DNA from: an uncultured Gammaproteobacteria bacterium
GTDB lineage: Bacteria > Patescibacteriota > Microgenomatia > UBA10105 > UBA927
DNA length: 64,000 bases
Reading direction: 5' to 3'
NCBI GenBank assembly: GCA_964629685.1
Contig: CAZVTT010000003.1
Span: 86,038-150,037, forward strand
In this document: piece by piece, positions 1 through 17,700 of the stretch
How the letters are laid out: every line of letters starts with the position of its first letter
How positions within the stretch are numbered: the stretch's first letter is position 1
Position numbers and translations under genes: made by a program
Notes under the pieces: model-generated
Seen by the model: the letters and a program-made list of their open reading frames with translations, nothing else
The model's database searches: none
What the model was told of the DNA's origin: nothing

Positions 1-46
1 GGGAGCTGTCCTGGCAGCACTTAGGAATCCCGATGCCGCCATCCTT

Positions 47-1096
47 TTGGTCTGGTGGATATGTATTCCGGTAGCCGCCATCATATTTACCGGGAACAAA
101 CATATTATTTCCCAAATATCGCGGTATATTTATTATTCGCTTCCCGCATATATCCTCCTGCTGACATTTACCGTATCGGAAACCTTCAGAATTATTACGG
201 ACTGTATCAGCCGCATGATTCCAAAACACAAATATAAATCCCCGCTTACGTCCGGAATTCAAATAGTCTTTACTTTGGGGTTTTTGGTCTTCATATTCGG
301 CCCTCAGCATCTTCCGGTTATTGCTCACCCAGATAACCGGAACGAGTACGAAGATATGATCGGTATCACACAAAAACTGACCGAATTGGGTCCCTTTTGT
401 CTGGCCAGTGACAATCAGAATATGCTGCGTTGGACTATCTGGTATACCCGGGTGTATCACCAAAATTCCGGTTTACCCTACCGATGTAATCCAGACTCAC
501 CCATACTGCTCATGATTCCCGGCGACGGAAAAGGCATGGGCATACCCCAAATCACCTGGCAACCGGTCTGGAAACAGGAAGGTATTCCCACCCGTACCCC
601 GTTCTTTGTTACCCGCGGCGTCATTCTTTATCGGGAACCGAGACCGGTTACGGGTATATCTACCGATACCACGGGTTTACTTACACTCCCGTTAAACGAA
701 ATTGCCGGTTGGAAAATACAACAGGAATCCACGAATGTCGCCTGGATCCAGTTCCCTGCAGGAGTAAAACCCGCGGATAAAACACAACCCGGGGTGCTAA
801 TGTACTCGGTAAAACCAGGATTTCCCTTTGCAGCCACCGGTGCTGCCATTACAGCCCAAACTGATGTTCACGGAACCGGGAGTTCCGTCACCATTGCACT
901 GCGGAACGGCGATACGGAATTGGGGCGTGCTGAATTTTCCGGCGTGGGCACGGAGACAAAAGCGGTGCAGTGGCAAACGCCGATAACCCGGAATACCAAT
1001 CTAACGCTGGTACTTACCCTGGTAGACGACAACAGCGGCGCGTTATACTCCAGCGACGTTCGGGCCGAACGAATCAGCATCCGATTTACCCGGTAA
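47..1096 (+). CDS. hypothetical protein; start uncertain (the reading frame stays open back to nt 2, so the gene may be 5'-truncated by the window edge, or it may start at an internal ATG near 215 followed by a hydrophobic segment)
   Basis: 349-codon ORF, the longest in this region; only short antisense ORFs overlap it; same strand as and just upstream of the 1173..3137 gene; no recognisable catalytic motif. Confidence 0.4.
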   Translation: MVWWICIPVAAIIFTGNKHIISQISRYIYYSLPAYILLLTFTVSETFRIITDCISRMIPKHKYKSPLTSGIQIVFTLGFLVFIFGPQHLPVIAHPDNRNEYEDMIGITQKLTELGPFCLASDNQNMLRWTIWYTRVYHQNSGLPYRCNPDSPILLMIPGDGKGMGIPQITWQPVWKQEGIPTRTPFFVTRGVILYREPRPVTGISTDTTGLLTLPLNEIAGWKIQQESTNVAWIQFPAGVKPADKTQPGVLMYSVKPGFPFAATGAAITAQTDVHGTGSSVTIALRNGDTELGRAEFSGVGTETKAVQWQTPITRNTNLTLVLTLVDDNSGALYSSDVRAERISIRFTR

Positions 1097-1172
1097 TTTT
1101 CCTGACTTTCCCCGTACATATACCCTGTTTTTCGTTTTCCTTTTATCCGTTTTTTCTTGTACAATTGTTTCC

Positions 1173-3137
1173 ATGGATCAGCATGCCCGCAAATCTTCCG
1201 GACCGTCAGTGGTTACATTACCCCCCAAACCGCGCCGTTCTTTCGCCTTCGTTTCACTCTTATCATCACCCGTCGTATTGCTGCTCTTAGTCATTGCCAG
1301 CGTAGTACTCCGACTTATTTTTATTCCCAATCCCGGTTTTGAAGCCGACGTCTCCTTCTGGAAATCCTGGGGACTGGCACCGCTGGACCATGGGTTAGTC
1401 TGGAGTATGCACAACACCAATAATAACTACCCTACGCCGTTTGCATATTTTCTGATGGTGTTGGTAAAAATATATAGTTTGTTTGCGGACCCCCATAATT
1501 TTAACGAATTCTGGAACAACTCAAATGTATTGTTTCTGGCCATCGCCAAAACTCCTTCCATACTGGCAGACTTCGGTATTGCTGCACTCTTTGTCTGGAT
1601 CGGGAAAAACGCCAAACGACTGGGATTTCCGGCATTGGGACTGCGGTACTATCTGGGTTTAGGATTCCTGTATCTGCTCAGTCCTATTTCCATTATGGAC
1701 GGGGCCTGGTGGGGTCAGGTTGATAGTATCGGAGTCATCGTCTTTTTATTTGCCATACTGGCTGTCCTTACCAAACGGCCCTTCCTTGCCGGACTGATTT
1801 ACATTACGGCCATGATGACCAAACTGCAGAACATGATTTTCGGCCCGCTGTTTTTTGTATTTGTGTGGCAGATGTTAGGAACACGCGGACTGATCCGCGC
1901 AGTCGCCGGGTCTATGCTAGGATTTTTAGGACTGAACATCGAATTTTTACTCGCCAAAGATATGGGGCGGGTGTTTCAATCCCTCACCGACAACTATGAT
2001 TACTTCCCGCTCATGTCCCTCAACGCCTACAACTTATGGTGGATTGCAGCCGGAGCCAACGGCATGAAAATGTCCGATAAAATACTGACCATCGGAATTA
2101 TGAATGCCAAGCAGGTCGGACTTATGATGTTTGCCGGCATGTATGTATTTGCCCTTCTGCATCTCATGAGCGAAACCATCCGCAGCATGTGGAGCCGCTC
2201 ACTTACCTGGTCCAAAAAGGCACTGCAACGACAACAAAAACTGGTTGCCGAAAAAATCCATTCCCTGGAAGACGCCGGAAACCCCATGGTATTCCATCTC
2301 TTTACAGCTTTATCCATAGTCGTGGGAGCATTCTTTTTATTCCAAACGCAATCACATGAACGGTATGCGTTCCCGCTTACGGTATTTCTGTTACTTATGG
2401 CCCCATTTTTTCCGGCGGCAAAACGCCGTTTGTGGCTCTCCGGATATTTTGCTTACACGCTCATTTATTTTTACAATTTACATACTGCGTTCGCGTCTAA
2501 CTATCCACAGAACGTACTGCCTGTCTTACGGGATTTTAATGCACCGGGACTCACCATCGCCGTCTCGTATATACAGATCGGATTATTTTTATTGTTACTG
2601 GCATTTAACTGGAAACATATTCATAAACTGGTATTTGTTGCGGGATTCGGATTCATTTTCGGCATGATCGTGCTGGGTAATCTGTCCTATTTCGCCAAAA
2701 AACCCATCGCTCTCACCAAATTAACTCCTCATACCAGCCTGCAGGATTACGGTCGCCGGGGGAATAACCGTTCTACCAACGGAGCATACGGCCCCAAATC
2801 GTGGAGCCGTTTATCTACCCAGTATTTTTACTATAAAAAAGGAATAGGTACGCATTCTCACAGTAAAATTGTGTACCATATAAACGGATTATTTTCGACA
2901 TTTACCACAGACTACGGCATAGACACCGAAGCGGGATCTCCCGGGTCAGCCACCTTCCAGGTTTGGGGGGACGGAAAAATGCTATTCGAATCTCCCAAAA
3001 TGGGCCGATTTGATCAACCGAAGCATACATCGGTCGACATCCGGGGCGTAACCCAGTTGGAACTGGTAACCACAGACGGTGGTGATACGATAAATGATGA
3101 TCACGCAGACTGGCTCAATCCGAAATTAATACCATGA
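1173..3137 (+). CDS. polytopic membrane protein, GT-C-like (PMT/ArnT-like) glycosyltransferase candidate with C-terminal NPCBM/NEW2-like carbohydrate-binding domain (..DDHADWLNPKL)
   Basis: 654-aa ORF with ATG start; 10 or more hydrophobic helices; first predicted extracytoplasmic loop carries an acidic FEAD motif; C-terminal soluble domain ends with a DHADW motif typical of NPCBM domains; the stop overlaps the next ORF's start as ATGA. Confidence 0.6.
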   Translation: MDQHARKSSGPSVVTLPPKPRRSFAFVSLLSSPVVLLLLVIASVVLRLIFIPNPGFEADVSFWKSWGLAPLDHGLVWSMHNTNNNYPTPFAYFLMVLVKIYSLFADPHNFNEFWNNSNVLFLAIAKTPSILADFGIAALFVWIGKNAKRLGFPALGLRYYLGLGFLYLLSPISIMDGAWWGQVDSIGVIVFLFAILAVLTKRPFLAGLIYITAMMTKLQNMIFGPLFFVFVWQMLGTRGLIRAVAGSMLGFLGLNIEFLLAKDMGRVFQSLTDNYDYFPLMSLNAYNLWWIAAGANGMKMSDKILTIGIMNAKQVGLMMFAGMYVFALLHLMSETIRSMWSRSLTWSKKALQRQQKLVAEKIHSLEDAGNPMVFHLFTALSIVVGAFFLFQTQSHERYAFPLTVFLLLMAPFFPAAKRRLWLSGYFAYTLIYFYNLHTAFASNYPQNVLPVLRDFNAPGLTIAVSYIQIGLFLLLLAFNWKHIHKLVFVAGFGFIFGMIVLGNLSYFAKKPIALTKLTPHTSLQDYGRRGNNRSTNGAYGPKSWSRLSTQYFYYKKGIGTHSHSKIVYHINGLFSTFTTDYGIDTEAGSPGSATFQVWGDGKMLFESPKMGRFDQPKHTSVDIRGVTQLELVTTDGGDTINDDHADWLNPKLIP

Positions 3138-5689
3138 AACACATCGAAAAAATTATCGGAATACTACTGGTAGTTTTTGCTGTAGGGTTCAATTTGTGGC
3201 TTTACCGCCTGGAACCCACCGCTCTGAGTGATCCCAACGACAATACCTTTCAATTTGCCTTGGTAGACCGCACCAATCAGATGTGGGATTTCGCCGCAAA
3301 AGAATGCGTCAAAACCCCGTTCACCTATCCGCTCTGCTTTGTGGGTTACATGGTGGATCATTGGGTACCCAATTGGGCACAGGGATACAACCTCCCCTAT
3401 TACTACTCACATGTCCCGCAGATCGTCATCGTTGCCAGTTTCAAACTCATCGCACCGGTACTGGGAGCAATGTCGCTCTTTACGTATTACCACTGGATAA
3501 TTTATCTGTTGCTGTGTTTGTTCCCGATCTCCGTATTTCTGGGACTCAGAATAATCAGAACATCCTGGCTTACCGCCGGAATCGGTGCACTGCTGGCTTC
3601 CCAGCTCTCTACCGACGGACTGTACGGTCTGGACCCGCCATCATTTTTATGGCGCGGTTACGGATTATCCAGTCAGATGTTTGCCATGATCTGGATGCCG
3701 CTCGCAGTTGCATACGCGTACCGATTCCTGATGATTACATCACAACAACAATTTAACTGGCAAACGGCAGCTTATATGGAATGGCTGGCTATAACCAGGC
3801 CGTTTACCCTGGCAATCAACACTCTCCGTAAACGAATTTCTCCTGCACGGAAACGCGTTTCCTCCCCGGATGAGGAAGTAGAATACGCTCCGGAATTGCG
3901 TCGCCTGTTCTGGATGGCTGCAGGATTCGGAATTTTAACCACCGCTGGCCATTTGGGTATAGGAATCATGACTATATTCTCTATTGGCTTTCTGGGGCTG
4001 TCGCCGGTAATTATGTCGATTATGGAAAAGCAACCAGTAAAGGAAATATATTATTTATTGATCAAACAAAGTGTTCGTATCCTTTTGCTGGTGGGAGTCG
4101 TCGTTTTCTTCCTCGGATACTGGATTATACCCACCCAATTACACGGGAACTACCACAATATTTCCGTTTGGGACCCGGTATGGAAATTTGACTCATACGG
4201 CTGGGGTGAAGTCATGAATATGTTTTTTAACGGAGCTCTTTTTGACTTCGGACGCAGCCCCATTGTCACCGGCTTGGTAATTTTGGGTGCCTTCGCCTGC
4301 TTTGTTATTACAAAAAATAATGGTAAACCGGCAGACGCCGAGGCGCTTACCGGCAACAACCACCAACTGCCTTCGCCAACGCACTTACCGTTTGTTCCTT
4401 TTACCTTTCTGTTCGTGTTCTGGATGTTATTTTTCTTTGGTCGGGCTACCTGGGGCGGTCTGATAGATCTTATTCCCGGTATGAAAGAGGTGCATTTATC
4501 GCGGTTTATTGTGGGACTGCACATGGCCGGATTATTTTTAGCGCCTATCGGATTCACTTGGATCATCGAACAGCTCAGTACCTATACCGTCAGATTGCTG
4601 GCGTATGCCGCTAAACTTCCCGCATTGCGGACCAACACCGGACTCAGTCTCATGGTACTTTGGATTTCCGCTGCCGCCGGAATCGCCTGGCTCTTCCCTT
4701 CCATATATGTTCAGACCATCCGGTATAACGATCTGAATAACAAACTGATTGTGCAGGCCAATGATAATTTTGTTCGGGAAAAACCTTTTCTGGACGAAAT
4801 CTTTGCTACCTTCCGCGGCTTACCTCCTGCCCGTATTTATGCAGGCAGAGCCGGTTGGGGCAGTAAGTTTGAAATAGCGGAAACCCCGTATAACATGATG
4901 CTGTCCACCTACGGCTTATCTACCGTGATGTGGCTTCCCGAAACCTGGTCCATGAATTCTGATACCGAACAATTCTTTAGCGAAGACGTAGAGAACAACT
5001 ATAATTTATATAACATCCGGTATGTCGTTACCCCACCGAATATCGAACCGAAAACATTCTGGACTCCGCTAAAAGAAACATCCGAATGGAAATTATACGA
5101 AGTTAAAAGCACGACCGGATATATAACCACCGGTACCAATTCCATGGTTGTTTCCACCTCCAAGGAAACGCTCATAAATATGGTGCATCTTTGGATTCAG
5201 TCACCCCAACACGTCGACAGACTGTATCCCGAACTGTCATTTAAGAAAAAAATATCTTCCCAACTTCCGGTAATCCGGATGCTGGATGAAGTCACCTATC
5301 AAACGACAGACGGACAACAGAAAAATATTTTCGCCGATCCCCCCTTAGTTACCGGCGTAACACCGAACATAACGGAAGCGGAAGAAAAAAATATCGCCGA
5401 TATGATTTTCAGTACCTCCGTTACGGTAAATGAACCTTGTATAAACTGTATTGTCATCCTGCGGCACACGGATCATCCCAACTGGCAGGTTAAACTCAAC
5501 GGAAAACCGGTTGATCATTTTACGGTTTTCCCCTTCTTCGTCGCCGCCAGACTACCGGGTCCGGGAACATATTCCGTAGAATTCAGTTATAAACCATCCC
5601 TGCTTAAAATGCTTATGCTGAGTGCTGCCGGAGTCGCAGGACTCGTACTGTGCTGGGGTATATTCCTCTCCAAACGGAAAACCTCCTAA
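3134..5689 (+). CDS. YfhO-like large polytopic membrane protein (putative glycopolymer or glycosylation accessory protein)
   Basis: 851-aa ORF; start ATG overlaps the upstream stop (ATGA at 3134-3137), indicating translational coupling; N-terminal multi-TM block, large soluble region, and a single C-terminal TM (LSAAGVAGLVLCWGIFL), matching the YfhO-family layout. Confidence 0.55.
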   Translation: MKHIEKIIGILLVVFAVGFNLWLYRLEPTALSDPNDNTFQFALVDRTNQMWDFAAKECVKTPFTYPLCFVGYMVDHWVPNWAQGYNLPYYYSHVPQIVIVASFKLIAPVLGAMSLFTYYHWIIYLLLCLFPISVFLGLRIIRTSWLTAGIGALLASQLSTDGLYGLDPPSFLWRGYGLSSQMFAMIWMPLAVAYAYRFLMITSQQQFNWQTAAYMEWLAITRPFTLAINTLRKRISPARKRVSSPDEEVEYAPELRRLFWMAAGFGILTTAGHLGIGIMTIFSIGFLGLSPVIMSIMEKQPVKEIYYLLIKQSVRILLLVGVVVFFLGYWIIPTQLHGNYHNISVWDPVWKFDSYGWGEVMNMFFNGALFDFGRSPIVTGLVILGAFACFVITKNNGKPADAEALTGNNHQLPSPTHLPFVPFTFLFVFWMLFFFGRATWGGLIDLIPGMKEVHLSRFIVGLHMAGLFLAPIGFTWIIEQLSTYTVRLLAYAAKLPALRTNTGLSLMVLWISAAAGIAWLFPSIYVQTIRYNDLNNKLIVQANDNFVREKPFLDEIFATFRGLPPARIYAGRAGWGSKFEIAETPYNMMLSTYGLSTVMWLPETWSMNSDTEQFFSEDVENNYNLYNIRYVVTPPNIEPKTFWTPLKETSEWKLYEVKSTTGYITTGTNSMVVSTSKETLINMVHLWIQSPQHVDRLYPELSFKKKISSQLPVIRMLDEVTYQTTDGQQKNIFADPPLVTGVTPNITEAEEKNIADMIFSTSVTVNEPCINCIVILRHTDHPNWQVKLNGKPVDHFTVFPFFVAARLPGPGTYSVEFSYKPSLLKMLMLSAAGVAGLVLCWGIFLSKRKTS

Positions 5690-5727
5690 TCCTTTCCTTT
5701 CCCCATCATTCCTGAGTGAATTGTGTG

Positions 5728-8700
5728 TTAGGGTACAATTATCGGTCGTGGCGTATTCAGCAATCGCAATCTGGGACGTTGCCATGGGAATACAGGAGCT
5801 TCATAGATAAACGAACGGTTAAGAATTATAAGAAAATCTCCATTCTTTAAAGCCCGATCAGAATCAAGCATTCCATATATTGGACTATTATAAGGAGTAC
5901 CTGTTCTCCATCGTTCATCTTCTGGCATCACGATTTCTTGAAACCCAGTTACAATCTTAATTTTATCCCCTTCCAGGAAAATATTATTATCCTTATGAAA
6001 GATACGGATAGTTTGCTTAAATAAACCATTCGTAATAACCACCTCATTTTTTTCTAGACTCACAATTCTGGGTTCAACTTTTACACCGGGTATAAATCGT
6101 ATACTATCAAGCGTGGTATAGAGCTGAAGCACTGACAAAGAATTTACCCGCCGCATTGCGAGGTTTAACCTATTGATAGCTAAAGTCCATCGGCTATATG
6201 GTAAATATCGTTGAGTCATTCCATCTGCCTTTCGTAGTACTGCCTCAAGAATATTTTCAGTAGCAATAACAGTAATAGCAACATGCGGTTGCGTCGATGC
6301 CATACCTACGACAAATAGATCATGGAACGAAAGAAGTAAGCGATCCCACGGGACAACTGGTGGTTCGATAATAGGCTTTTCTTCCGGTATGGCGGGCGCT
6401 GTCTCAGATGTATTAACGGTCTCCATTCGTGTTCGGAAAAAACGCAGCACGCCTCGCCAAAACATCTGCCAACCGTCGTTCGCGATTATAGTACTAATCG
6501 ATCGATCTCCCATTCTTCCATCCGGCACCGCGCGAACCTCAGGTTCACCGATACGTATTACGGGTTCGGTAGGAACCAATTCCGGTCGGACATTTTGCTG
6601 ATAATACGCCAGAGCTTCTGCATACGTACCGAATTTTTCTTCACCCAACAATCGGATATACGTTTGCAGCACCTCAGGAATACCTGGCATATATGTTCTG
6701 TTGGACGCATCTGTGGTCGTTATTTTTTGAATCATGAATTCCCCGACTGCCTTAACTAAAATTCGGGATTTTCCGGAACTCACCCGGGATGCACTATTTA
6801 AGTCTCCTACTTTTGCCCGGATCACTTTACCGGTTACTTTATCGGTAAAAATAAACGTATTTACGTCTCGCACGTCATCAACTGAATAGCCCTTTTGTTC
6901 CGCTTCGACCAAACCAGCGAACAGACCATCCAGGATGGTCACCAATGTGGTATATTCCTTCCTGGCTGCTTCTTCCGCAATAACCCCGGTATAATCAGAA
7001 GCATCACCATCTGCAAGTTCCAAAAGCAGTACCGGAAACCCATTTATTTTTCCCTGATCAAGCATCGTCAGTAAAGACTCCTGTCCGGCAAGAGCCTGAT
7101 ATACCGCTATCTCTTTTTCCGTCGCTGCTGCGCGGGCGATGCTGGGGATCTTCACCGCAACTTCCATATCTCCTGCAGCCGTTTTCCGGATAGCCCGGTA
7201 CACCGTCGCCCCGCTACCTCCCAAAGATTCTGTCAGTCTCAATGTTTCCGAAATACCGTTTGTAGATACGAAACTCACATCAACCTGTTTCCCGTCTTTT
7301 AAATACCCGGTGATAAAATTGGTTATGGACTTATCCGTTATCGACTGATCAAACGAAACTACCTGCGTCTGGTTTTCCCGCACCTCTTCCTGTTCAACAT
7401 TCAAATCCGGTTGATACACCTCATCGGCAGTAAAAACTGCCGAATATGCAACACGTACAGGCATCTGCCAGAGATCATTTTCAATAAAATCCGCAGCAAG
7501 CCGGACCGGTTCACGCACGTACCCGGGAAGTGCACAAGCCGCATTGGCCCCGTCTGCGGCATATACCTGACGTATACCGGGAACCAACGAACTACAATTC
7601 TCTTCCGCGACCAACCAGGCCTGCAGTCTCCGTGCAAACGGAATCGCTATCCGGTCGCGTGCCAATTCTTCGATTGGGAAATACGCCTGTTCCGGCTCTT
7701 CCACCTCGGGGGCAGCTACCGGTTCAACCGGTACTTCCGGCTGCTCTGCCTGAACCTGCGGGGATAAATGAATTCTGAAGAAACGCTGTGGAAAATCCGG
7801 ACCGAAATGCTGCGTCGTGCGTTCTTCGCGTTCAATAACTCCTCTCCGGCTGTACATCCGGGATAGTGCTTCTGCGAGTGTTTGTTTATTGGTTCCGGTA
7901 AGATAGTCTGCAGCATGCGTTTCCACATGGGTATAACCACGCGCCACTAACTCTTTCTCCAGCACCTTAAGCATCCTGACAAATCCGGTTCCCGAAAAGC
8001 GCTGATCAAATACGGTAGAAGAAATATATGCCGTATCAGCTGATTGTTTATTCGCATAAATATATCCGATTACCTTAGCTCTTCCGTTTTCTTCAACCGT
8101 CTGCACGATCACAATGTTCTGCGGATTATTAAAATCCGCTTTCAACTGTGCTTCCGTATACCCCAGGTTAGCATTGCCGAAATTAAATCCCTGTTGCTCC
8201 AGTGCAAGCACATCCTCCCGTAAACCGGGGACTAAAGTCCAGGGATCACCATCCCATGTTGCCGGATTAAGTACTATTGTACCCACAGGAAACACCGGAA
8301 TATCGGTACTGTCAGGGGCCTGTTCTCCGGCAGCTACAGCCAATACCCGCTTGGCATTCCGGGATAACGGACGGGCAGATCTAATGGTATATCTATACCG
8401 CGGATGGAACGTTTCTTCTTCTATGGCAACTTGCTGTGCTTCAGGGGCAGCATACGTAGAAAGAATATACGCTTCAAACCCTGGCCGGTTCGATAATCCG
8501 CCGGCTTCGGTAGTAATATACAGTTCAAAACCCAGTGCTTTTGTAATTTTGTACAATGCCAGCATCGTTTGATCTATAAACTGTTCCTTTTTCTCAATTG
8601 TCAGCTGGCCTACAAAAGAAGTCGACGGATCAAATCCTATCATTACAAGCTTTTTATCCTGAATTGAGAACAAAACATCTCCGACCAACTCGCCATCAAC

Positions 8701-11700
8701 TATCATCCGGGCCATAGCCACGGAATCACGGGCCATGTCGTACGGAAAGTTTCCAAAGCATGTTCCGGAACAATTTCCCTGAAACAGATCCAGAAAATTC
8801 TTTGGTCCCAGTACTATTTCTACTGTTTTCTGATTCCGCACCGACTGGGTTCTGTTTACTGTTAACGCTTCTTTTATACCGGTAAATACGCGCCACTGTT
8901 CCGTACGGGTTACTCTCCCCTGCAAACTCTCTAATCCCATACCGCGGAGTACGTGCTGCAGATGCGTCGTAAGATCCGAAAGTTCGTTGTACAGTTCATT
9001 TCGCTCAGTAACCGGAAGTGACCCGCTTAAATACAGCCGGACGCGTTCCAATTGAATTTGGGCTAGTACCTGATTCACAATACGGAAGACAACGTCTTCA
9101 GGTACGGCAATTCTACCCAGTATATATCCCTGCATTCGTCCGACCGGATCGGCATCAGCCCGCATTCCTTTCAGAATATTTTCCGGAATTTTTTCCGTTA
9201 CATATTCTTCGTTTATCCCGTCGGCATTTACGTTCTGGAACACCTCTTCCACTTCCGCATGTAATGCTTCAATACCCGTGTTATCCTGGGTGGCCAAAGC
9301 AGTATTTAATACATCCTTCAGTTGTCCTTCAATTTCCGGAGGAAGTTCAAACAGCACGTCTTCCGTGGAAAATCCGAATGTTTCCGTAACGGTCCTTGCT
9401 ATACCGCGGGTTGTTATCTTCCCGTCTATATCCCGTATTACCTGAGGCGCGGAACGATTTTCCATCGGAACGGCAAGACGTTTGGCTATATCTTCCAAGT
9501 CACGGGTAAAATTAGAATCTACCCGTTGGATGTATACCGGATAAAATGCATATTGCTGCGGCGTCAGTGGAGTCCCGGAATGTATCCTCTGGGTAAAACT
9601 GTCATAAGAGTTACTACTTTCTGCCGCTATATTCCCAATGAGTTGCCTCCGGGTTTCCCTGTTCTGTTCATCCTGTAATTCGGGAGATAATACTAACGCA
9701 TTCAAATAGACCCCTGCCCGCTGATCTATGGCTAAGTCCGGCCTGACAGATAACAATTCCAGGAAGAGCGCCTTTTCCTCCGAAGTCATTTTTGCCGGGA
9801 GACCGAATTGCGAAAAGTAATATACGGCGTCAGGGTCATTCGGTGTCGGATAAATACCCCGGATTAACCGGGTAAGCTTAGTTACCGCCTGCGGAGACTG
9901 TTTTACTAATTCCGTAATCGCCCGCCCCTGCAACCGCAAGCGAATTTCACGGACGGTTTCCAACGGATACGACGTAATCAATTTCAACGCGAATGATGCA
10001 TCGTCATCTATCACCCATTGCGGGAGTAACACCTCATTTGTCGTGGCCTGTAACCTGTGCAGATAAGCTCTCCGGACAATTTGAGCATTTCCGGTTACGT
10101 CACGGGGATTTTCACGGATAGCTCCCAATTCAGTGCCGTCCACCACCGGTGCTATAACGGAAATCAATACCGGGTCAGCATAATCCAGTGCATGAGCCTG
10201 ACTGCTGATATATGCGGCATACTCAAGTGTGGCAGTCTCCTGATCTATTATGGCTGAAAACAACAATATCTGCTGTAGACCGTCAGCTTCATCATACTCT
10301 GAAGATCTACTGGCCAGCCGTTCGATCAGATACCCTGAAGCTTTGGTTAACACTATTTCCGGTCTGGTTACCAGCAACTGCAGGGCAATCAATCGCTCAG
10401 CTTCTCCCAGCTGTTCCGGGAACGTAATTTCCTGCCGCAGTTGTTCTGCCGTGGAAAGCGGATTCACCAATACCGATACTTTATTTACTAAAGCTGCCTG
10501 TTTGTCGGGATTGCTTTCCGCAAGAGCAACGATAGCCGGCTGACGCAGAAGTTGCCCTGCCTGACGCAAAGCTTCTACCGGAAGTGTTTGTACCATCCGG
10601 ACGGTGGCAAATGAATCCGCGCGTACCGCCCAGTCAGGTAGAATTTCTTCCCCCAGATACGCATTCAATTCACGGAAATATGCATGCTTCAACGCCGTCT
10701 GCTTGTCATAGGGTTTGGCATTGGAACCAAGAGATGCAAACTCATCCGCACTCAGAAGGGCTTTCATCATCGGGTCATCCAGATAGGTTACCCGGTAATT
10801 ACTGGTATTACGCATTAAAAAATTCAGAATATCTAACTTGGTAAACAGTCCTTCGGCCATCATAGACTGAAGTTCCGCAAATGCTCTGGTTGCAAGCTCG
10901 GCATTTTCCCGGTAACTGATCATTTTGAAGAAGCTCCCCTCAATAGACTCTCGGTAAGCCGTATCCGTGTCATATCCTGTGGCAAAACTCATGAACTCCG
11001 CTGTCGGAATTGTGGCTTCAGGGCCGATTGTCTGTTGCATCAGCTCACGCATGAGCCGGGTGGTGGCCTTCCCGTTCACGATATAATCCGGCAAATACTC
11101 GATATGTGCCAGAATGTATGCTCTAACACTCGGAGGTGCGTCAACAAATGCAGGTGCGTAAATCCGCACGATATCGGCATAGGAAATATCTTCCGGATCT
11201 TTTTCAAATAGTGTCAACAGATACTCCAACTGTTCGGACGATTCATTCCCCTCTTCACCGCGCACGCGGATCGATTCCGGTCGCTCCATCGAAAACGTAT
11301 TTATTGCCGTAACGGTTCGCAGATATTGCGCTTCCGGAATTCTGCTCAGTTGTCGGGAAGCAGCTTGCAACCGCGGACTCCGCATCAGCGACTGGAGTGA
11401 TACCTGAATTCCCAGTTGATGTAGCCGGTCCATATCATCCATTACATAGGGATGGCGGACAAAAAACCACAGCGTTTGCGGGGTAACGGACTTAAAATAG
11501 TTTAAGGTAATCTTCGTAGCTTTAAGGAAAAGCAGATACGTTACTTCCTTAACCTCGGCAGTAATCAGTGAGGGTTCGTTCTGTTCAATGTGTGAAACGA
11601 CTTCATTCACCCGCCGGACACCCAGCAACCTGAGCATCGCTTCCAGATAAAATCTCCCGCGGCGATCTGCCAGATTTTTCGGATTGGGAGTGATAGACTG

Positions 11701-14700
11701 CGTGGATCTATTGTAACTCCGTACGGAATGCCTGCTGGCCAGATTACCGATAATTCCGGAACCGTCTACCCCCTCGGGTGGAGGAACCGGTACCGGTACC
11801 TGATTCGGCATCAGGTATGTCGGCAAGGTAAACAGATATTTAAATGGTAGCCATGCTAATCCGTTTATTCCGGCTGCCACTCCGTGTATGGTTTTGACCG
11901 CGCTGTTATTGGGAAATATTTTTGTTCCCAACCAGGTAACCCGTTCAATAACAGTGGTAAATGCTACCACTTTAAGATATTCCGGATTGGCAAACGGAAC
12001 CATGCTCGGCAACGACGTTATATCATCCGGGGAATCCTGATTTGTACTCAATATCCGTTCTAACGGATGAAGCTTTTTCGTAGGATCAATATGCTGTACA
12101 TATTGTTGAATTTGTTTTGCAGTGAGTGACTCGAGTAATACTGCCGCATCTTTACCATTAGCCGTGGTTTTATATATCTTGATGACGGGACTAATACTTC
12201 CCTTCCTCACTTCATATCGGATTCCCAATTTGTCGAGTAACGGTAAAATTTGGTACACATCCTGTATTGGAGAGAAATTCTGCTTACGGATCTGGGAATT
12301 ATATCCGATCACCGGCTGTTCCGAGCCTTCTTTTCCCTCGGATAACTGAAATATAAAATATCCGTCTTTCGACAACACCTGCATCACGCCACTAATTTGC
12401 CGGATTAAATCCTGTGCATCCGGTGAATAATGCTGAAAGTTAATTCCGATAGCCATAGCCACATCAACTGTCCCGGGCTCTACTACCGTATGGGCTTGTT
12501 CTGCAGTAACGCCATGAATTCTATCCTCAATGTGAAGTAATTTATGAGATACGATTGCCTCCTGTGCCTGTATATCATCAGGATATTGGTATGAAGGCTC
12601 CAAACCGGCTACTACCGTATATCCTTCGCGATCCAGATCGCGCACCGCTGCTCCCATGCCTACGCCAACTTCCATAATCCGCCGGGTATTCGTTTTCCAA
12701 TCGGTGAGTTCATCATCCGTCACACCCAACATAGCTTGGCCTGTTTGGTCAGGGTAATGCACGCCGTCAAGAGAAGGACTGCTGGTAAAAAATGGTCTTC
12801 CGGTTACCATCCACGGGGCTCGTTCACTGTTTGACTCTTCCCGAAGAAATACCGGTAATGCGGCAATGAGGCTATCCAAATCGTCTTGAGGAACTATTGC
12901 TACAGGTAAACCGAGAAGATATGGATGTGCCGGGAGTGCCTGAGCTTGCGACTGTTGTTCTAGATTTTGTTGCTGTTGGCCTATAAATGCCACTTCTGCA
13001 AATAATGTTGGGATGGAAACGTGTACGGGTATAGAACCTTTACTGGTTATTAGATACCCTTCATACACTCGTTCATGTGTCCTGCTAGCACCGGTTAACA
13101 ACAGTTTAACTGGCTGATTCCCCTCGGCATCAGTTAATACAACTTCGACTTCTTCCCCATTCTGGACTCGGGAACGTATGTCTCTAATGGAAACAATACT
13201 GGCCGTAATCTGCTCCGGCGTTGATTTGTTCTGTTGAGAATTTATTGACTCAGATTGTGGTTGTATTTGATCGTTAATACCATCAACTGGTTCGTCCTCA
13301 GTTGTAGAGGAAGCGTCGGGCATTGTTTGCACTATCGTTCTCCCTAACCACAAAACCGGTGCCTGCCAGAGCGCGGTATCAGCAATTTCCACACCGTCTT
13401 CCAGTACTTTCCTGGCTGCTCCGGGAAGGGCACACTGCCCGCCGGTTGTTCCCCCATCCGCCGCAAACACCGGCCGTAACAATCTCATACCGGTACCGCA
13501 ACGATTATTCTGATCATCAAGCCATTCCTTAACACCTTCAGTCGCGTCGAGAACAATCTCCTGAGCTGCCGTTTCAACAGGGAGATACGTTTCGGCCTGA
13601 GAGTCTGCGTTACTGCTCTGAGCTTCCTGCGATGGTTCGACCTGTACCCTGCTTAATGTTACCCGGCCATTGTCAGTCGGATCTGCATACACCCAAAACG
13701 TATTTGTACCGATGGTAATAAAGTCACCACGGTGTACAGTTCTGATTTCATAATACGGGACAACCTTATCATTTATTGAAAATATGGCTGAGGCTATCAC
13801 ATTTTGTACCGCCAGTGTCTCATCATCAATCCGCCGGACTTCCAGCCGGATACCCCTGGAATAAGTACCGGGTAATAACAAAACATCAGGTACATCATCA
13901 GGCGTATACGTCCCAACGGTTACGGTTTGATTCTCCGGAATATTCAAAGTAAACAATTTCTGGCGTACCAGTTGCGATCGCCGAAGTGACGTCAGAGACC
14001 GTGCCGGCAACACTGTCTTTGCTTCATATTGTGACCGGAAATATTTATACGTAGCTATCGTCTTTAATACCTGTGCGTGATATTCATAGTCGTTTCCGAT
14101 ATATGAGTCTTTACTTTTTATCCACCGATTGTATTCGCTTATCCATTGCGCAATCTGTGCATCCTCAGGATTGGCTTGCATCAATGTATTGAGATACTCA
14201 GCGTACCGTCCCAACAAGGTCGCGGTAGTATCAATATTAGAATTCCCGCGCGATAACGCCAATAAATAATGTGCCCCTTCTTCCAGTCCCATCAAAAAAT
14301 ACTCCCTGGCTTGAGTGGTTATGGTTGAAGTATGCGCTTCGGGGGCTGACTGTTTTTGTGTTCTCCGTGAAGTTAATGCCAGGCTAATTGCCTGACTAGC
14401 TAAGTCTGTACCGTAATAGCCGATATATGGTTCACCCATAAACTCATCCGGAACCGATGAGTAGTACCCGAAAGCATCAACAAACGTTGCCCGAAAATTG
14501 TGTATTTGTGCCTGTGTAGCAGCTGTATACAATCTCCCGGAAGTAATCAATACCGGGAAATTCAACGCATCTCCTCCATTTTGTTTTGTGGCTAAGCCGG
14601 GAAAACTTCCGAAACTGAATTGCATACCAAGTTCCGTATATGCCATCAGTTCTGCAGCAGCTGAATAAACTTTCTGCTTTCGCAGGGAAATTCCGGTCTT

Positions 14701-17700
14701 CTTTATTTCCGCGTCTATATCGTCTTTAATGGGTGACTTCGCAATGAAATCCATATAGTAGGCTTTACGAAGACCAATATAATGCTCAACATACTGATCA
14801 AACTCTGCAGCAGTTTTAAAGTCTCCAAGCGTTGGTCTCTTCTCCACGGGAACAACAGTAAATGTTGACGCAGCAACCAGTTGGGTTACTTTTTCCTGAA
14901 CCTCTTGTCCCAACCAGTTCTTCCGCACACGGATTACTGTCTCAATTCCTTTCTTTCGATGAGTAAAGGATTGTTCTCCCTCCGGGTATATCATGTTTAA
15001 TTTCTCCGCTAATGCACTTTCTGAATCCGCCGCGGTTACGATTACCTGTAATAACGGGTGACCGATGCTGCTCGGCACATTTCCAGCCCAGGTATAGTCA
15101 ACAGCTATATACCTATTCCCTACCTGATACACCTGGCGGAGCAAAGCTGTATTCGACTCTCCGACCGGTGCATCTGAGAGAATCAACGGAAGATGTTGCG
15201 CAGTGAATGGATCTAACTCACCGAAACTGAACACATTTTTCACATCTCCTACCAATGGTTTTATCTGGTGAACCTGGACAATAGTTTTGAGCTTTCCTTC
15301 CCGCTCGCGGAGTTGGCGTTGGAATTTAATCCGCCAGTCGTTTACGATACTCCGGTTCATGCGGTACACACGAATTGCAGCCAGGTATATTCTCGGATTT
15401 ATCCAGTCACGTAACGGATACGTTTTGAATATATTTGAGAGACGCTGTTGCAACAAGAACGGATAGAATTGGGGAATCGTTTCCGTTTGTAACGTCGCAT
15501 TAGCTCGCTCTATAGCAGCAGCAATACGCTGCTGCAGTCTGATGGCTGCTTTGTACTGTTCCTGAATACCGTTCGGCAGTATCCGCACGTACCACGGTAA
15601 CACCGGTTCAACCACAACCGGTTGTGATACCGCCACCTTCTGCGTGGTTTGTACCTCGGCGTTTACTGCCTCTGTTTGGCTAAGTTCTGTTTCCGGTTTG
15701 GTTTGCTGTTGCTCAGGTTGAGCGGGAGAAGCCGAAACCGATACGGTTCTGAGCACCCACAACGCCGGAGCCTGACCGATAAATTCGCGGGCAGGATACA
15801 ACAACCTTCCCAGCAGACTGCACCCTCTCCCCGATTGGTCCGCTGCGTATGCCTGAGGTACCAATCGGAATGCCGCACCGGCACAATCTTCAGTTACATC
15901 ATCTACCCACTCATCCGTGGTTTCATCCCAACCCGGTGCGGCAGCAATCGGCTCAAACGCTTCCGGATGGTACATCCATTCATAATAGATATCCCGCATG
16001 TCTCCGGGGTTTAATGTCGGGTCAGATATCGCTATCCGATAAATTTGCTCACGGGTAAGATCGGGATTTTTCCGTCTGGCTTCATCTATGACATACTCAC
16101 GCAGAAAAAATTCCAGTTCTTCGTCTGCACGCGGTGTAAAATATGATTCGTAGCTCAATGGTCCATCGGGAAATCCGGCCGTATACCCCGAAATAAATTC
16201 GTCCTGATCATAATAGAAGGCCAGCAAGTCAGGTATCACCCCATATTCCCATGCAGGCAAAATTATACCGCGACTGTTAAGTAATGCCCGGGCATACGTA
16301 TCGGCAATGCCGGCAGTACCGCGTTCATACGGCATCATGTTAATTAATAAATAGTATGATTCCGCAACTGCCCGCTGTATTTCCGCTTCATCAGCAGATG
16401 TTCTGACTATTGTTAACAGTTCCTGTAAACGTTCGTACACCACCTGCTGTTCCGCTTCCGTAAAATACAGATGATATATTTCGTTGCCGATCATGCTACC
16501 CGGATTATCCGTACGGACCAAAATACGCTGTGCCAGAATACTGACTCCCTTAACGGTAATCCGGTGTTCATACACAGTGACGTTGGGTGATTTCGGATCT
16601 GGTGTCCCTTTTTCCTGAAACCAGGGTCGGGAAAACGAATACATCAATTTGGAATCCCACCAATCAAAATCCGTCGTTTGCAAAGACGTGGTTAACGAAT
16701 CATCCCGCTCTCGTCCGAAGGCAGCATCCGTTTCTTCTACGCCGGCTTTCCTGGCAGCGACCAACGCCTGTAAAATATCCTGTGGAGTAAGCGTTTCATC
16801 GTCCCTGATTGGTGCTTTCAGCGTATCGATAGCTTCAGCCAGCGGTAGGGCAAATTTCGGATTAAAGCCACCGAATCTCCTATCACGCAGCACTACATTC
16901 GTCCAGGGATAATCCGGTGCCCGGCCACCATGCTCCCGGATATATGCTGCCATCTTTTCCACTTCCCTGTCCCAGATCATTTGGATTAATTCTTTTGTCC
17001 AGGTGTTATCTTCTCTCCGTACTGCACCGAGATACACGGTCATAAAATCACCGGTACTGATCATCTTCTGTTGATCCTCTTCGGAAAGACTGTTCCAAAA
17101 ATCCTTCCATGATTTTCCGGAGGATTGCGGTTGGGGTAACTGCGGAGCAGGCTCCGTATCCGGCCGGATCACATCCAGAACAGCCTCCCCTTCGTGTACC
17201 AAATCGGACCACAGGGTATCTGCCGGTACATTCGTACCAGGATACCGTTCATTTATAATGGTAGAAATATCTGTTTGTCCTGTTAGATAGGCATCGATAA
17301 CGTCTAACATTTGTTTGTAACTTTCTTCTGTTAACATATCGAGCATGTCCGTATATCCCTGTGTTCTGATATTCTGTCCGACATTGCGGATACGGTACGC
17401 CTGCTTAAATTGTTCAAGTGAAACAGGAGTTGGAGCTCCATTGGCATACGCAGCGTTCCTAAATTCCAAAAACGCCAACAGAACATTACCGCCATGCTGT
17501 ACTATCCACGTCTCTACACCTATGCCACCCAATCCATGTTGATCAGCCGATTTATAAACATTTCCTTCTTTTAAAATCAATTTTGCTAAAACTATATTGG
17601 CCAGTACCGTTTCCCGATGTTGTGTGCCGATTAACGGATCTCCTGCTTGTTGTTCAATCGCTTGTAGTTTCTTTTCAATTACCTGACTGGGAGTAATCAA

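Follow-up and report, generated by a model that had tools for sequence, protein, structure and literature searches.

Two consecutive GT-C-fold membrane proteins, most likely surface-glycosylating enzymes, beside a giant gene in Gottesmanbacteria-type Patescibacteria

We analysed a 64,000-nt stretch of DNA (the window) in which two adjacent genes, ORF1 and ORF2, converge on a giant open reading frame (table). We consider it probable that the two genes encode consecutive, probably co-transcribed GT-C-fold glycosyltransferases that belong to a conserved envelope-glycosylation cluster of the Gottesmanbacteria type, with a general function and not one dedicated to the giant gene.

Arrangement and conservation of the gene pair

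An earlier, sequence-only reading had described the two genes as overlapping by ATGA, hence co-expressed, and as ending 38 nt from the stop codon of the giant gene on the opposite strand. The overlap and the distance were both recovered: the ORF2 start codon lies on the ORF1 stop codon, the TAA of ORF2 occupies 5687-5689 and the giant ORF stop 5728-5730, and no terminator-like hairpin was found in the spacer between them. The ORF2 start is backed by homologues aligning from residue 1-5. In 73 of 76 loci, each representing a species of Gottesman-, Woese- or Roizmanbacteria, the gene directly upstream of the ORF2-like gene on the same strand is ORF1-like, a pairing far above chance. Co-transcription of the pair is plausible. 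The ATGA overlap, however, is present in just 11 of 83 related loci (median ORF1-ORF2 spacer, 78 nt), and translational coupling is confined to this lineage.

Features of the window discussed in the text
Feature	Position	Strand	Description
3' part of PMT_2-family gene	2..1096	+	365 codons of a 776-aa GT-C membrane protein
ORF1	1173..3137	+	654 aa, ATG start; predicted GT-C-fold glycosyltransferase with C-terminal CBM51/NPCBM
E57-A58-D59 codons of ORF1	1341..1349	+	candidate catalytic base; invariant in 56 sequences
NPCBM/CBM51 module of ORF1	2712..3128	+	aa 514-652; predicted extracytoplasmic
ATGA overlap	3134..3137	+	ORF2 start codon on ORF1 stop codon
ORF2	3134..5689	+	851 aa, ATG start; GT-C-fold, YfhO-like membrane protein
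D33-P34-N35-D36 codons of ORF2	3230..3241	+	DxxD motif, first outside loop; invariant
ORF2 ectodomain and terminal TM anchor	4709..5671	+	aa 526-825 and aa 826-846; DSSP of model, loop analysis
Spacer	5690..5727	none	38 nt between convergent stops of ORF2 and giant ORF
Giant ORF	5728..58422	-	17,564 aa; context only
Giant protein aa 56-202	57817..58257	-	TM and S/T/P-rich stretch; hydropathy and composition scan
LysM and peptidase M23 gene	59693..60769	-	synteny marker

Folds, topology and candidate active sites

ORF1 has 13 predicted TM helices (aa 33-503) ahead of its C-terminal module, and its AF2 model is of high confidence (pLDDT 89.9, pTM 0.89). The TM domain gave no Pfam or NCBIfam model above threshold, and family profiles of ORF1 and ORF2 found no GT-C chain among PDB sequences. 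Foldseek comparison of the TM part with the PDB returned EmbB, ALG6, GPI-MT-I, PIG-U and PimE; all matches were GT-C proteins and none was a transporter. By fold, ORF1 is nearest to PimE/GT87, ALG6 and GPI-mannosyltransferase I, and the membrane domain superposes best on PimE (9dm5; target TM-score 0.65) and ALG6 (6snh; 0.56). Family members match Pfam GT87 (22 of 56) and Alg6_Alg8 (3 of 56), and more distant relatives of 400-450 aa without the CBM match GT87 and PMT_2 at about threshold. The proposal of a PMT/ArnT-like GT-C enzyme thus stands for the GT-C fold, but not for PMT/ArnT specifically.

ORF2 is predicted to have 12 TM helices: 11 in its N-terminal part and, after an ectodomain of 300 aa, a last one that serves as anchor. 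Its AF2 model is likewise confident (pLDDT 82.8, pTM 0.85). The ectodomain is beta-rich by DSSP of the model and sits between the last two TM helices, as in the published topology of B. subtilis YfhO (PMC5836110), and the tail KRKTS is cytoplasmic by loop analysis. The best 16 Foldseek matches in the PDB are all GT-C enzymes (AftD, STT3, AftA, DPY19, Pmt4), AftD being the best. Topology therefore agrees with the description of ORF2 as YfhO-like, as does Pfam, in which YfhO is the sole family matched by ORF2 relatives (18 of 58). The sequence link is however marginal, since these relatives cover just the last 50-70 positions of the model, in the C-terminal part and near threshold, and ORF2 itself matches no Pfam or NCBIfam model above threshold, YfhO included.

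Models, topology prediction and family alignments agree on a polytopic GT-C fold for both proteins, each with an invariant acidic motif in its first outside loop. The invariant ORF1 motif F56-E-A-D59..F62-W63-K64 lies in outside loop 1 where the first juxtamembrane helix starts, with helix H57-73 of the AF2 model beginning at E57-A58-D59, a site predicted to be outside. D59 thereby matches in position the catalytic D58 of PimE, which is found at the JM1 tip (PMC12041525). In ORF2, D33, P34, N35, D36 and N37 do not vary among 58 sequences and are predicted outside; GtlB, another GT-C enzyme, has an essential DxxD motif in its loop 1 (PMC5836110). Loop-located invariant columns fall exclusively in predicted outside loops (69 outside and 0 inside for ORF1; 86 and 0 for ORF2), and further invariant polar residues of ORF1 there include K217-L-Q-N220 and S394-H-x-R-Y398. 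K+R residues are denser in the inside loops, with 19 in 89 aa there versus 9 in 161 aa of outside loops in ORF1, and 18 in 117 aa versus 7 in 117 aa in ORF2.

The structural matches of ORF1 include PIG-U, a subunit that has a GT-C-like fold but is not a glycosyltransferase, and neither query itself passes a Pfam glycosyltransferase model. One or both proteins might accordingly lack transferase activity, serving as a PIG-U-like scaffold or substrate-binding subunit, or be glycan polymerases or ligases. We regard this as very improbable: the invariant E57/D59 of ORF1 and D33/D36 of ORF2 occur exactly at the GT-C catalytic-base position and, together with dozens of further invariant polar residues in outside loops, point to a conserved active site. 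Likeness to PIG-U has also been stated for PimE (PMC12041525).

The C-terminal sugar-binding module proposed for ORF1 was confirmed as a clear CBM51 member in sequence and fold, predicted to lie outside the membrane. It matches Pfam PF08305 (E=2.1e-35, 122 bits, cutoff 23.9) and CBM51 with bound methyl-galactose (2vmg; Foldseek TM-score 0.84), and phmmer against 7js4 gave 3.5e-23 for full ORF1 and 1.1e-25 for the C-terminal segment alone. Among the C. perfringens GH95, GH98 and ZmpB CBM51 modules (2vmg, 2vng, 7jrl), its GIGTH and DDHADW signatures align with those of GH95 and ZmpB. The C. perfringens modules are parts of secreted enzymes (glycoside hydrolases or peptidases) that break down host glycans, whereas that of ORF1 is attached to a predicted membrane glycosyltransferase.

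Neighbouring genes and known glycosylation systems

Directly upstream of ORF1 is the PMT_2-family gene (Pfam PMT_2 E=2e-8); its 3' part in the window shares its frame with the ORF at 47..1096, and its 5' part lies just left of the window. A GT2 gene, two genes upstream of ORF1 and also just left of the window, overlaps the PMT_2 start by 1 nt (GT2 6854..7594 and PMT_2 7594..9924 in the numbering of the contig locus L001). The best NCBIfam matches of this GT2 are Dol-P-hexose transferase, PgfS (E=1.6e-11) and AglJ, all below cutoffs. GT2 occurs within 9 kb of the pair in only 5 of 36 loci and so is not a conserved neighbour. By contrast, a polytopic paralogue (g589-like) is near the pair in 34 of 36 loci and a small membrane protein with a PT linker (g247-like) is upstream in 30 of 36. 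The cluster encodes six or more polytopic membrane proteins, of which three are paralogues without an assigned family.

Several known systems resemble this arrangement in part. YfhO, CsbB and GtcA form multi-component transmembrane glycosylation systems in B. subtilis and Listeria (PMC5836110, PMC8035078). Shared with these are the many TM helices of ORF2, its large extracytoplasmic domain between the last two, its basic cytoplasmic C-terminus and GT-C fold, and a candidate lipid-sugar synthase (GT2) encoded nearby in the same direction. Unlike in those systems, the GT2 gene is neither adjacent to ORF2 nor conserved across lineages, no GtrA/GtcA-type flippase gene was seen within 10 kb upstream of the pair on its contig, the obligatory partner is a second GT-C enzyme with CBM51, and the host, a Patescibacterium, is not known to have teichoic acids. 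The S. mutans Pgf cluster consists of a GT2 and two YfhO-type GT-C enzymes (PMC12041528). Here too, there are genes for a GT2 with a below-cutoff match to PgfS and for two polytopic GT-C enzymes whose candidate catalytic motifs face outward, and adjacent genes encode proteins of the surface or anchored in the membrane that have Ser/Thr(/Pro)-rich linkers, namely g247 and the giant protein with its N-terminus. However, ORF1 is GT87/ALG6-like with CBM51 instead of YfhO-type, no epimerase was seen in the contig, and the neighbour is a multidomain giant and not a cell-wall-anchored adhesin.

PimE and ALG6, which represent GT-C transferases using polyprenyl- or dolichyl-phosphate sugars (PMC12041525), are linked to ORF1 by superposition, by the position of D59 and by the Pfam matches of its relatives, but sequence similarity is below family thresholds for ORF1 itself, ORF1 has 13 predicted TM helices and a CBM51 that both lack, and in this organism the ORF1 acceptor would be neither phosphatidylinositol mannoside nor a dolichol-linked N-glycan precursor. 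Mycobacterial EmbA/B/C and AftD (7bvc, 6x0o, 6w98) likewise join a GT-C membrane domain to extracytoplasmic carbohydrate-binding modules, and EmbB (for ORF1) and AftD (for ORF2) are among the best Foldseek E-values. These enzymes are however much larger, carry other CBM types and superpose poorly over their whole length (rmsd about 20 A, TM-score 0.16-0.35), and no arabinan pathway is evident here.

The GT-C enzymes known from solved structures to bear a CBM are Emb and AftD, which build polysaccharides. The CBM of ORF1, together with further polytopic paralogues as expected for stepwise polymer assembly, fits a glycopolymer as acceptor no less than a protein. The pair might thus build or decorate a teichoic-acid-like polymer, secondary wall polysaccharide or lipoglycan, with the CBM51 of ORF1 holding the growing glycan, in keeping with the classical action of YfhO on lipoteichoic and wall teichoic acids or with mycobacterial assembly by PimE, Emb and AftD; this is a tentative alternative that we hold to be somewhat unlikely. 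The best TM-scores of ORF1, to the glycolipid mannosyltransferase PimE and to ALG6, and the AftD match of ORF2 are consistent with it, and teichoic acids are what YfhO acts on in B. subtilis and Listeria (PMC5836110). Against it, the surroundings of the pair yielded no backbone genes for teichoic acid or lipoglycan, and the same-strand neighbour kept most often looks like a protein acceptor, being small, anchored in the membrane and equipped with an S/T/P-rich linker. Patescibacteria also have no known envelope polymer that could be named as the acceptor.

The giant gene and the proposed function

The sequence-only reading had further suggested a dedicated surface-glycosylation system, possibly acting on PT-rich linkers of the giant protein, and had named co-occurrence of the pair with giant genes in related genomes as a check. 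The co-occurrence is real: using a frame of at least 1,200 aa as the criterion, a large ORF lies downstream of the pair in 29 of 52 species loci, always convergent. Upstream flanks gave none (0 of 50) and the same strand downstream gave one (1 of 52). The arrangement persists at 41-49% ORF2 identity, although the visible parts of the giant genes show almost no remaining resemblance. In the giant protein the one strong TM segment (aa 56-74) is followed by an S/T/P-rich stretch (aa 91-202), and its about 230 Cys all occur in the first 3,900 aa, which fits an exposed, disulfide-bonded N-terminal part; the Pgf cluster likewise adjoins Ser/Thr-rich adhesins that it glycosylates (PMC12041528). Selection could therefore have kept the genes adjacent for O-glycosylation of PT-rich linkers in this extracytoplasmic part, but we find dedication unlikely. 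In 23 of 52 loci, including the whole basal clade of the ORF2 tree (at least nine gain or loss events are needed), the pair is retained although no large convergent ORF follows it, and g589-like and g247-like neighbours are kept more often than the giant gene. The giant gene fills a slot between the pair and a LysM-M23 gene, which flanks this slot with or without the giant gene and follows the pair within 5-8 kb in related loci that lack it (L005, L009); since the slot is otherwise collinear, giant-gene co-occurrence counts as few independent events. The putative acceptor region is moreover encoded at the opposite end of the giant gene, a distance of 52 kb from ORF1 and ORF2. The claim of dedication is therefore not upheld, and the convergent position is best read as an old, vertically inherited arrangement that was lost in several lineages.

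For the general envelope function that we favour, extracytoplasmic glycosylation from lipid-linked sugars is likely. A cytoplasmic GT2 would load a hexose onto polyprenyl phosphate. Fold, topology and conservation indicate that the invariant residues of both proteins, including E57/D59 of ORF1 and D33xxD36 of ORF2, face outside, where the YfhO-like ORF2 would place the first sugar on an extracytoplasmic acceptor; the outward CBM51 of ORF1 may then hold a galactose- or HexNAc-type sugar while ORF1 adds a further one. The acceptor would most likely be Ser/Thr/Pro-rich, membrane-proximal linkers of envelope proteins, a feature common to g247 and the giant protein N-terminus. In streptococci, enzymes of the YfhO type attach O-linked sugars to disordered, Ser/Thr-rich regions of adhesins and of proteins associated with the membrane (PMC12041528). 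By its composition, aa 56-202 of the giant protein could be an O-glycosylation acceptor, and its PT-rich linkers are by analogy a possible target. Collectively, ORF1 and ORF2 are most likely membrane enzymes that attach sugars to cell-surface molecules in this tiny Patescibacterium of the Gottesmanbacteria type.

Arrangement of the gene pair and its upstream cluster

ORF1, a putative GT-C glycosyltransferase with a C-terminal NPCBM/CBM51 module, and ORF2, a YfhO-like membrane protein, form a gene pair that converges on a giant ORF. The ORF table and the bases themselves agree with the anatomy given in the sequence-only reading, namely an ATGA overlap between the two genes and 38 nt between the ORF2 stop codon and that of the giant ORF. 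As a whole, the observations of that reading were confirmed, and its interpretation is partly supported. The start of ORF2 is backed by homologs whose alignments begin at residue 1–5. A promoter and terminator scan of positions 1..6200 gave fewer sites than shuffled sequence, with none upstream of ORF1 and none in the 38-nt spacer.

Coordinates of the gene pair, the giant ORF, and neighboring genes (L001, the source organism's own contig; L003 and L004, related loci carrying the pair)
Feature	Sequence	Position	Strand	Size	Remarks
g589, polytopic paralog	L001	831..2600	-	530–590 aa (three paralogs)	8–10 TM helices
g247, single-pass membrane protein	L001	2708..3451	+	247 aa	~7 kb left of window
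g537, polytopic paralog	L001	3525..5138	+	530–590 aa (three paralogs)	8–10 TM helices
g531, polytopic paralog	L001	5141..6736	-	530–590 aa (three paralogs)	8–10 TM helices
GT2 and PMT_2-family protein	L001	6854..9924	+	246 aa and 776 aa	directly upstream of ORF1; 1-nt overlap (TAGTG)
PMT_2 gene, 3' end	window	2..1096	+		continues from L001
ORF1	window	1173..3137	+	654 aa	from ORF table
ATGA, ORF1/ORF2 overlap	window	3134–3137	+		bases read directly
ORF2	window	3134..5689	+	851 aa	from ORF table; stop at 5687–5689
Giant ORF	window	5728..58422	-	17,564 aa	stop at 5728–5730
tRNA gene	window	58905..58977	-		between giant ORF start and LysM-M23 gene
tRNA gene	window	59273..59345	-		between giant ORF start and LysM-M23 gene
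LysM-M23 peptidase gene	window	59693..60769	-		just past giant ORF; same gene as in loci without a giant gene
Weak T4SS_pilin gene	L003	16393..17400	-		related locus
Weak T4SS_pilin gene	L004	14575..15561	-		related locus

The organism's own contig (Logan SRR14271365) extends left beyond the window. The top NCBIfam matches of the GT2 encoded there were dolichyl-phosphate hexose transferase, PgfS, and AglJ, all under their cutoffs, and all three families are lipid-phosphate-sugar synthases. The three polytopic paralogs farther upstream share the first-loop motif H..DY..YL..I.QG, and searches with them returned no Pfam or NCBIfam family. In the small protein g247, a TM anchor is followed by a S/T/P-rich linker; the protein also has a conserved globular domain and a conserved 'VLPAGxTYLGP' motif, and likewise belongs to no Pfam family. 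The three paralogs are possibly further GT-C-like enzymes of the same cluster, and g247 is a candidate acceptor or accessory subunit. A three-component transmembrane glycosylation system comprises a GT2, a GtrA/GtcA flippase, and a GT-C enzyme. The GT2 and GT-C enzymes are present in the contig; none of the genes called within 10 kb upstream belongs to the GtrA family.

Fold and family of the two membrane proteins

The sole Pfam match of ORF1 was NPCBM/NEW2 (PF08305) at aa 514–652 (E = 2.1e-35; 122 bits against a cutoff of 23.9). By phmmer, the CBM51 structure 7js4 was matched at 3.5e-23 with full-length ORF1 and at 1.1e-25 with the C-terminal segment alone, and this segment matched 2vmh and 2vmg at 4e-18 with the GIGTH and DDHADW signatures aligned. 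In a Foldseek search of PDB, the C-terminus aligned to the CBM51 2vmg with a TM-score of 0.84. The claimed NPCBM-like module is therefore present, with Pfam model, fold, and signature motifs in agreement, and the retention of both signatures suggests a functional site, with galactose- or HexNAc-type sugars as putative ligands.

The N-terminal 510 aa of ORF1 have hundreds of homologs at 48–62% identity, nearly all of which carry the NPCBM fusion and come from Patescibacteria (Gottesmanbacteria where named); some are labeled 'Gpi18-like mannosyltransferase' by JGI. The AlphaFold2 (AF2) model, built from 56 sequences, was confident (pLDDT 89.9, pTM 0.89). Foldseek matches of its membrane part in PDB were GT-C proteins only, including EmbB (4e-6), ALG6 (1e-4; target TM-score 0.56), GPI-MT-I (1e-3), PIG-U, and PimE (7e-3; target TM-score 0.65), which identifies a GT-C fold. 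Assignment to a non-glycosyltransferase transporter family, which would have undone the sequence-only reading, did not occur, because no transporter fold appeared among the significant PDB matches, and we rejected such an assignment for ORF1. A MatE match (E = 0.098) was far below threshold and lies in the upstream PMT_2 fragment, not in ORF1.

Assignment to a particular GT-C family was less direct. ORF1 itself falls short of the threshold of Pfam GT87 (PF09594), with no match at E ≤ 0.1; among its 56 family members, 22 matched GT87 (best E 1e-5) and three Alg6_Alg8, all weakly. Across 1.84 billion cluster representatives searched exhaustively, phmmer returned 1,749 relatives of ORF1 at E ≤ 1e-3, many of them proteins of 400–450 aa without the CBM. 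Eight of ten sampled CBM-less relatives matched a GT-C family model (GT87 in seven, four of which also matched PMT_2, and Alg6_Alg8 only in one), with scores at or near the gathering thresholds (24–35 bits against a cutoff of 25 for GT87). These near-threshold matches place ORF1 as a GT-C enzyme in a clade near GT87, PMT_2, and ALG6, a sister group for which membership in GT87 is not demonstrated. Profiles of the ORF1 and ORF2 families, searched against PDB sequences, recovered CBM51 only and no GT-C chains.

Four motifs are invariant across the 56 ORF1 sequences: F56-E57-A58-D59, F62-W63-K64, K217-L-Q-N220, and S394-H-x-R-Y-A-F-P401. The first, acidic motif lies in the first predicted outside loop, directly after TM1 and at the start of helix 57–73, with D59 at the beginning of the first juxtamembrane helix of the AF2 model. 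The catalytic D58 of PimE sits at the tip of the equivalent helix, and PimE and ALG6 are both assigned to the GT-C_A subclass (PMC12041525). AF2 helices and hydropathy together indicate 13 TM helices and a cytoplasmic N-terminus bearing five K/R residues. Under this topology, 69 loop-located invariant columns fall outside and none inside, and K+R number 19 in 89 aa inside vs nine in 161 aa outside. It follows from the predicted 13-TM topology that the CBM51 would be outside, on the same face as the putative active site.

ORF2 itself had no match in Pfam (E ≤ 0.1), NCBIfam, or PDB sequences (phmmer), nor in a plasmid collection searched by tblastn. Its homologs, at 45–53% identity, are abundant in the same organisms, and about a third have a precomputed YfhO match. 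When we scanned 58 relatives directly, YfhO (PF09586) was the sole family found, in 18. The sequence link to YfhO is marginal, because these relatives match only the last model positions (~766–835 of 835) near the cutoff (24.7–34.7 bits against 28.5), leaving the N-terminal catalytic domain unmatched. The best 16 PDB matches of the AF2 model (pLDDT 82.8, pTM 0.85) in Foldseek were all GT-C enzymes, among them AftD (3e-7), STT3, AftA, DPY19, and Pmt4. The sequence D33-P34-N35-D36-N37, invariant in 58 sequences, follows directly after TM1 in the first outside loop and contains a DxxD motif resembling the one that is essential in the GT-C enzyme GtlB (PMC5836110). The predicted layout begins with 11 TM helices at the N-terminus, continues with a beta-rich ectodomain of 300 aa (aa 526–825), and ends with a terminal TM helix (aa 826–846) and a KRK tail; each of the 86 invariant columns located in loops falls on the predicted outside. 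The published layout of YfhO has ~13 TM helices, the last two separated by a large extracellular loop of 389 aa (PMC5836110), and the modeled ORF2 conforms to this plan. We use the designation 'YfhO-like' for ORF2, a GT-C protein by its modeled fold and acidic first-loop motif and a possible member of the YfhO family: its topology agrees with that of YfhO, and its sequence remains under the Pfam YfhO threshold.

Conservation of the pair and its association with giant genes

To survey the pair across species, one genome per species was scanned, yielding 80 loci from Gottesman-, Woese-, and Roizmanbacteria, 76 of them usable. An ORF1-like gene lay directly upstream of an ORF2-like gene in 73 of the 76; the two genes share the ATGA overlap at 11 of 83 loci, with a median spacer of 78 nt. 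Within 9 kb upstream, the neighbors at 36 loci were g589-like genes (34), g247-like genes on the same strand (30), and GT2 (5), with PMT_2 at none. The g247-like gene is a commoner neighbor of the pair than the giant gene and immediately precedes ORF1 in basal lineages. From these frequencies, the conserved core is g247, ORF1, and ORF2, in that order, and the GT2-PMT_2 module is a lineage-specific addition upstream of ORF1. Many of the MAGs (L010–L089) with a clearly Patescibacteria-type locus were deposited as 'uncultured Gammaproteobacteria bacterium' and are mislabeled.

In related contigs, gene calls just past the pair gave convergent products of 15,956, 13,173, 12,315, 5,270, and at least 2,673 aa, and two related loci had no convergent giant product. 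Downstream sequence of 6 kb or more was available for 52 species loci, and 29 of them have a minus-strand frame of at least 1,200 aa; 26 of these 29 frames run past the end of the fetched DNA; the frames start at a median of ~1 kb from ORF2. Frames of this size were found in none of 50 upstream flanks and on the same strand downstream in one of 52 loci. The proposed co-occurrence with giant genes in related genomes is therefore real, with a fixed orientation. The seemingly complete large frames in L017, L020, and L043 proved to be internal fragments without recognizable N-termini. The pair occurs twice, in divergent orientation, on the 47.6-kb contig CAVQFA010000001.1 (L017 and L020). A large frame follows each copy, and the two frames share 90% identity; the arrangement is either a genuine inverted duplication or an artefact of long-read assembly.

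When mapped on a tree of ORF2-like proteins, the large frame occurs in 33 of 53 loci; the basal clade and several subclades lack it. At least nine changes are required, which is the pattern of an old arrangement repeatedly lost. In loci without a giant gene, a LysM-M23 peptidase gene follows the pair within 5–8 kb. Relatedness among the giant genes is only loose in their visible C-terminal parts, of which 22 of 34 are linked by BLAST at 22–58% identity, and the window's giant protein was matched in only six fetched loci, the organism's own contig among them. The pair does not require an adjacent giant gene, and the co-occurrence reflects few independent events. The convergent synteny is genuine and previously unreported; the evidence does not make the pair a dedicated system for the giant gene, and that part of the sequence-only reading is not carried, given the persistence of the pair without a giant gene and the losses on the ORF2 tree. 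Literature searches on Gottesmanbacteria with giant genes and on NPCBM with Patescibacteria found nothing relevant, and a preprint on Omnitrophota giant genes does not cover the lineage of the window.

Two further features adjoin the giant gene. The two tRNA genes upstream of its start could mark an insertion hotspot for it. The two closest relatives have, between the pair and the giant gene, a gene of ~330 aa with a weak T4SS_pilin match that the window lacks.

Putative acceptors and biological significance

The models present two GT-C-fold proteins with predicted outward-facing invariant acidic motifs, one of them bearing a predicted outward CBM51; the adjacency of the pair is conserved, and a GT2 lies nearby. 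Both enzymes would use polyprenyl-phosphate-sugars as donors. ORF2 would make the initiating transfer and ORF1, guided by its CBM, the extending one, and the acceptors may be Ser/Thr/Pro-rich linkers. The closest characterized systems are CsbB/GtcA/YfhO, which glycosylates teichoic acid (PMC5836110), and GtrB/PgtC2 and Pgf of streptococci. The YfhO-type enzymes of the streptococcal systems attach O-glycans to disordered, Ser/Thr-rich regions of membrane-associated proteins, and the Pgf genes adjoin those of their adhesin substrates (PMC12041528). A polymer acceptor, with the pair decorating or building a non-protein envelope glycopolymer, is nearly as likely as a protein acceptor. The present pair differs from the characterized systems in joining a YfhO-like enzyme to one that is GT87/ALG6-like and bears a CBM51, in having no flippase gene visible nearby, and in that both proteins are below every family threshold, the NPCBM module of ORF1 aside.

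As a potential protein acceptor, the giant protein has one strong TM segment only (aa 56–74) and a S/T/P-rich stretch at aa 91–202. Its Cys residues number 27–42 per 500 aa up to residue 3,500 and 14 between aa 3,501 and 4,000, with totals of ~230 in the first ~3,900 aa vs ~20 in the remaining 13,600 aa. This distribution suggests that the N-terminal quarter is exposed and rich in disulfides, next to a remainder depleted in Cys, and the exposed quarter could in principle be an O-glycosylation acceptor. Pfam recognized little of the 17,564 aa: five FHA domains, one HATPase_c, and an ALP_N-like match in the Cys-rich repeats. An AvrB_AvrC-like (type III effector) segment lies at ~aa 13,995–14,082, within the last 4,364 aa. 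A homolog search with aa 40–760 returned nothing at E ≤ 1e-5, candidates probably being swamped by low-complexity sequences. We consider it improbable that the g247-like protein, the GT-C/CBM51 protein, the YfhO-like protein, and the convergent giant gene constitute an O-glycosylation module of a Gottesmanbacteria surface apparatus, in which the two enzymes would glycosylate the exposed N-terminal part of the giant protein, rich in Ser/Thr/Pro and in Cys. If true, this would be the first defined protein-glycosylation system of Patescibacteria, and one tied to giant proteins with a possible part in host-cell contact.

The ultrasmall Patescibacteria, most of which have not been cultured, are believed to live attached to other cells, and very little has been learned of their envelope chemistry. 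The giant gene occupies ~5% of a 1-Mb genome. ORF1 and ORF2 are ordinary enzymes of a well-known superfamily, recognizable yet divergent, and their combination of domains is new: the fusion of a GT87/ALG6-like membrane domain to a CBM51 lectin module is a previously undescribed architecture. The pair lies within a cluster of further polytopic membrane proteins, and in roughly half of the species a giant gene stands back-to-back with it. Gottesmanbacteria and their relatives, as a whole lineage, keep a fixed pair of GT-C glycosyltransferases that are predicted to act outward. If their acceptor is a polymer, a wall glycopolymer of a new kind would be indicated. The pair would offer a possible handle, through lectins and glycoproteomics, on the surface structures of Patescibacteria.
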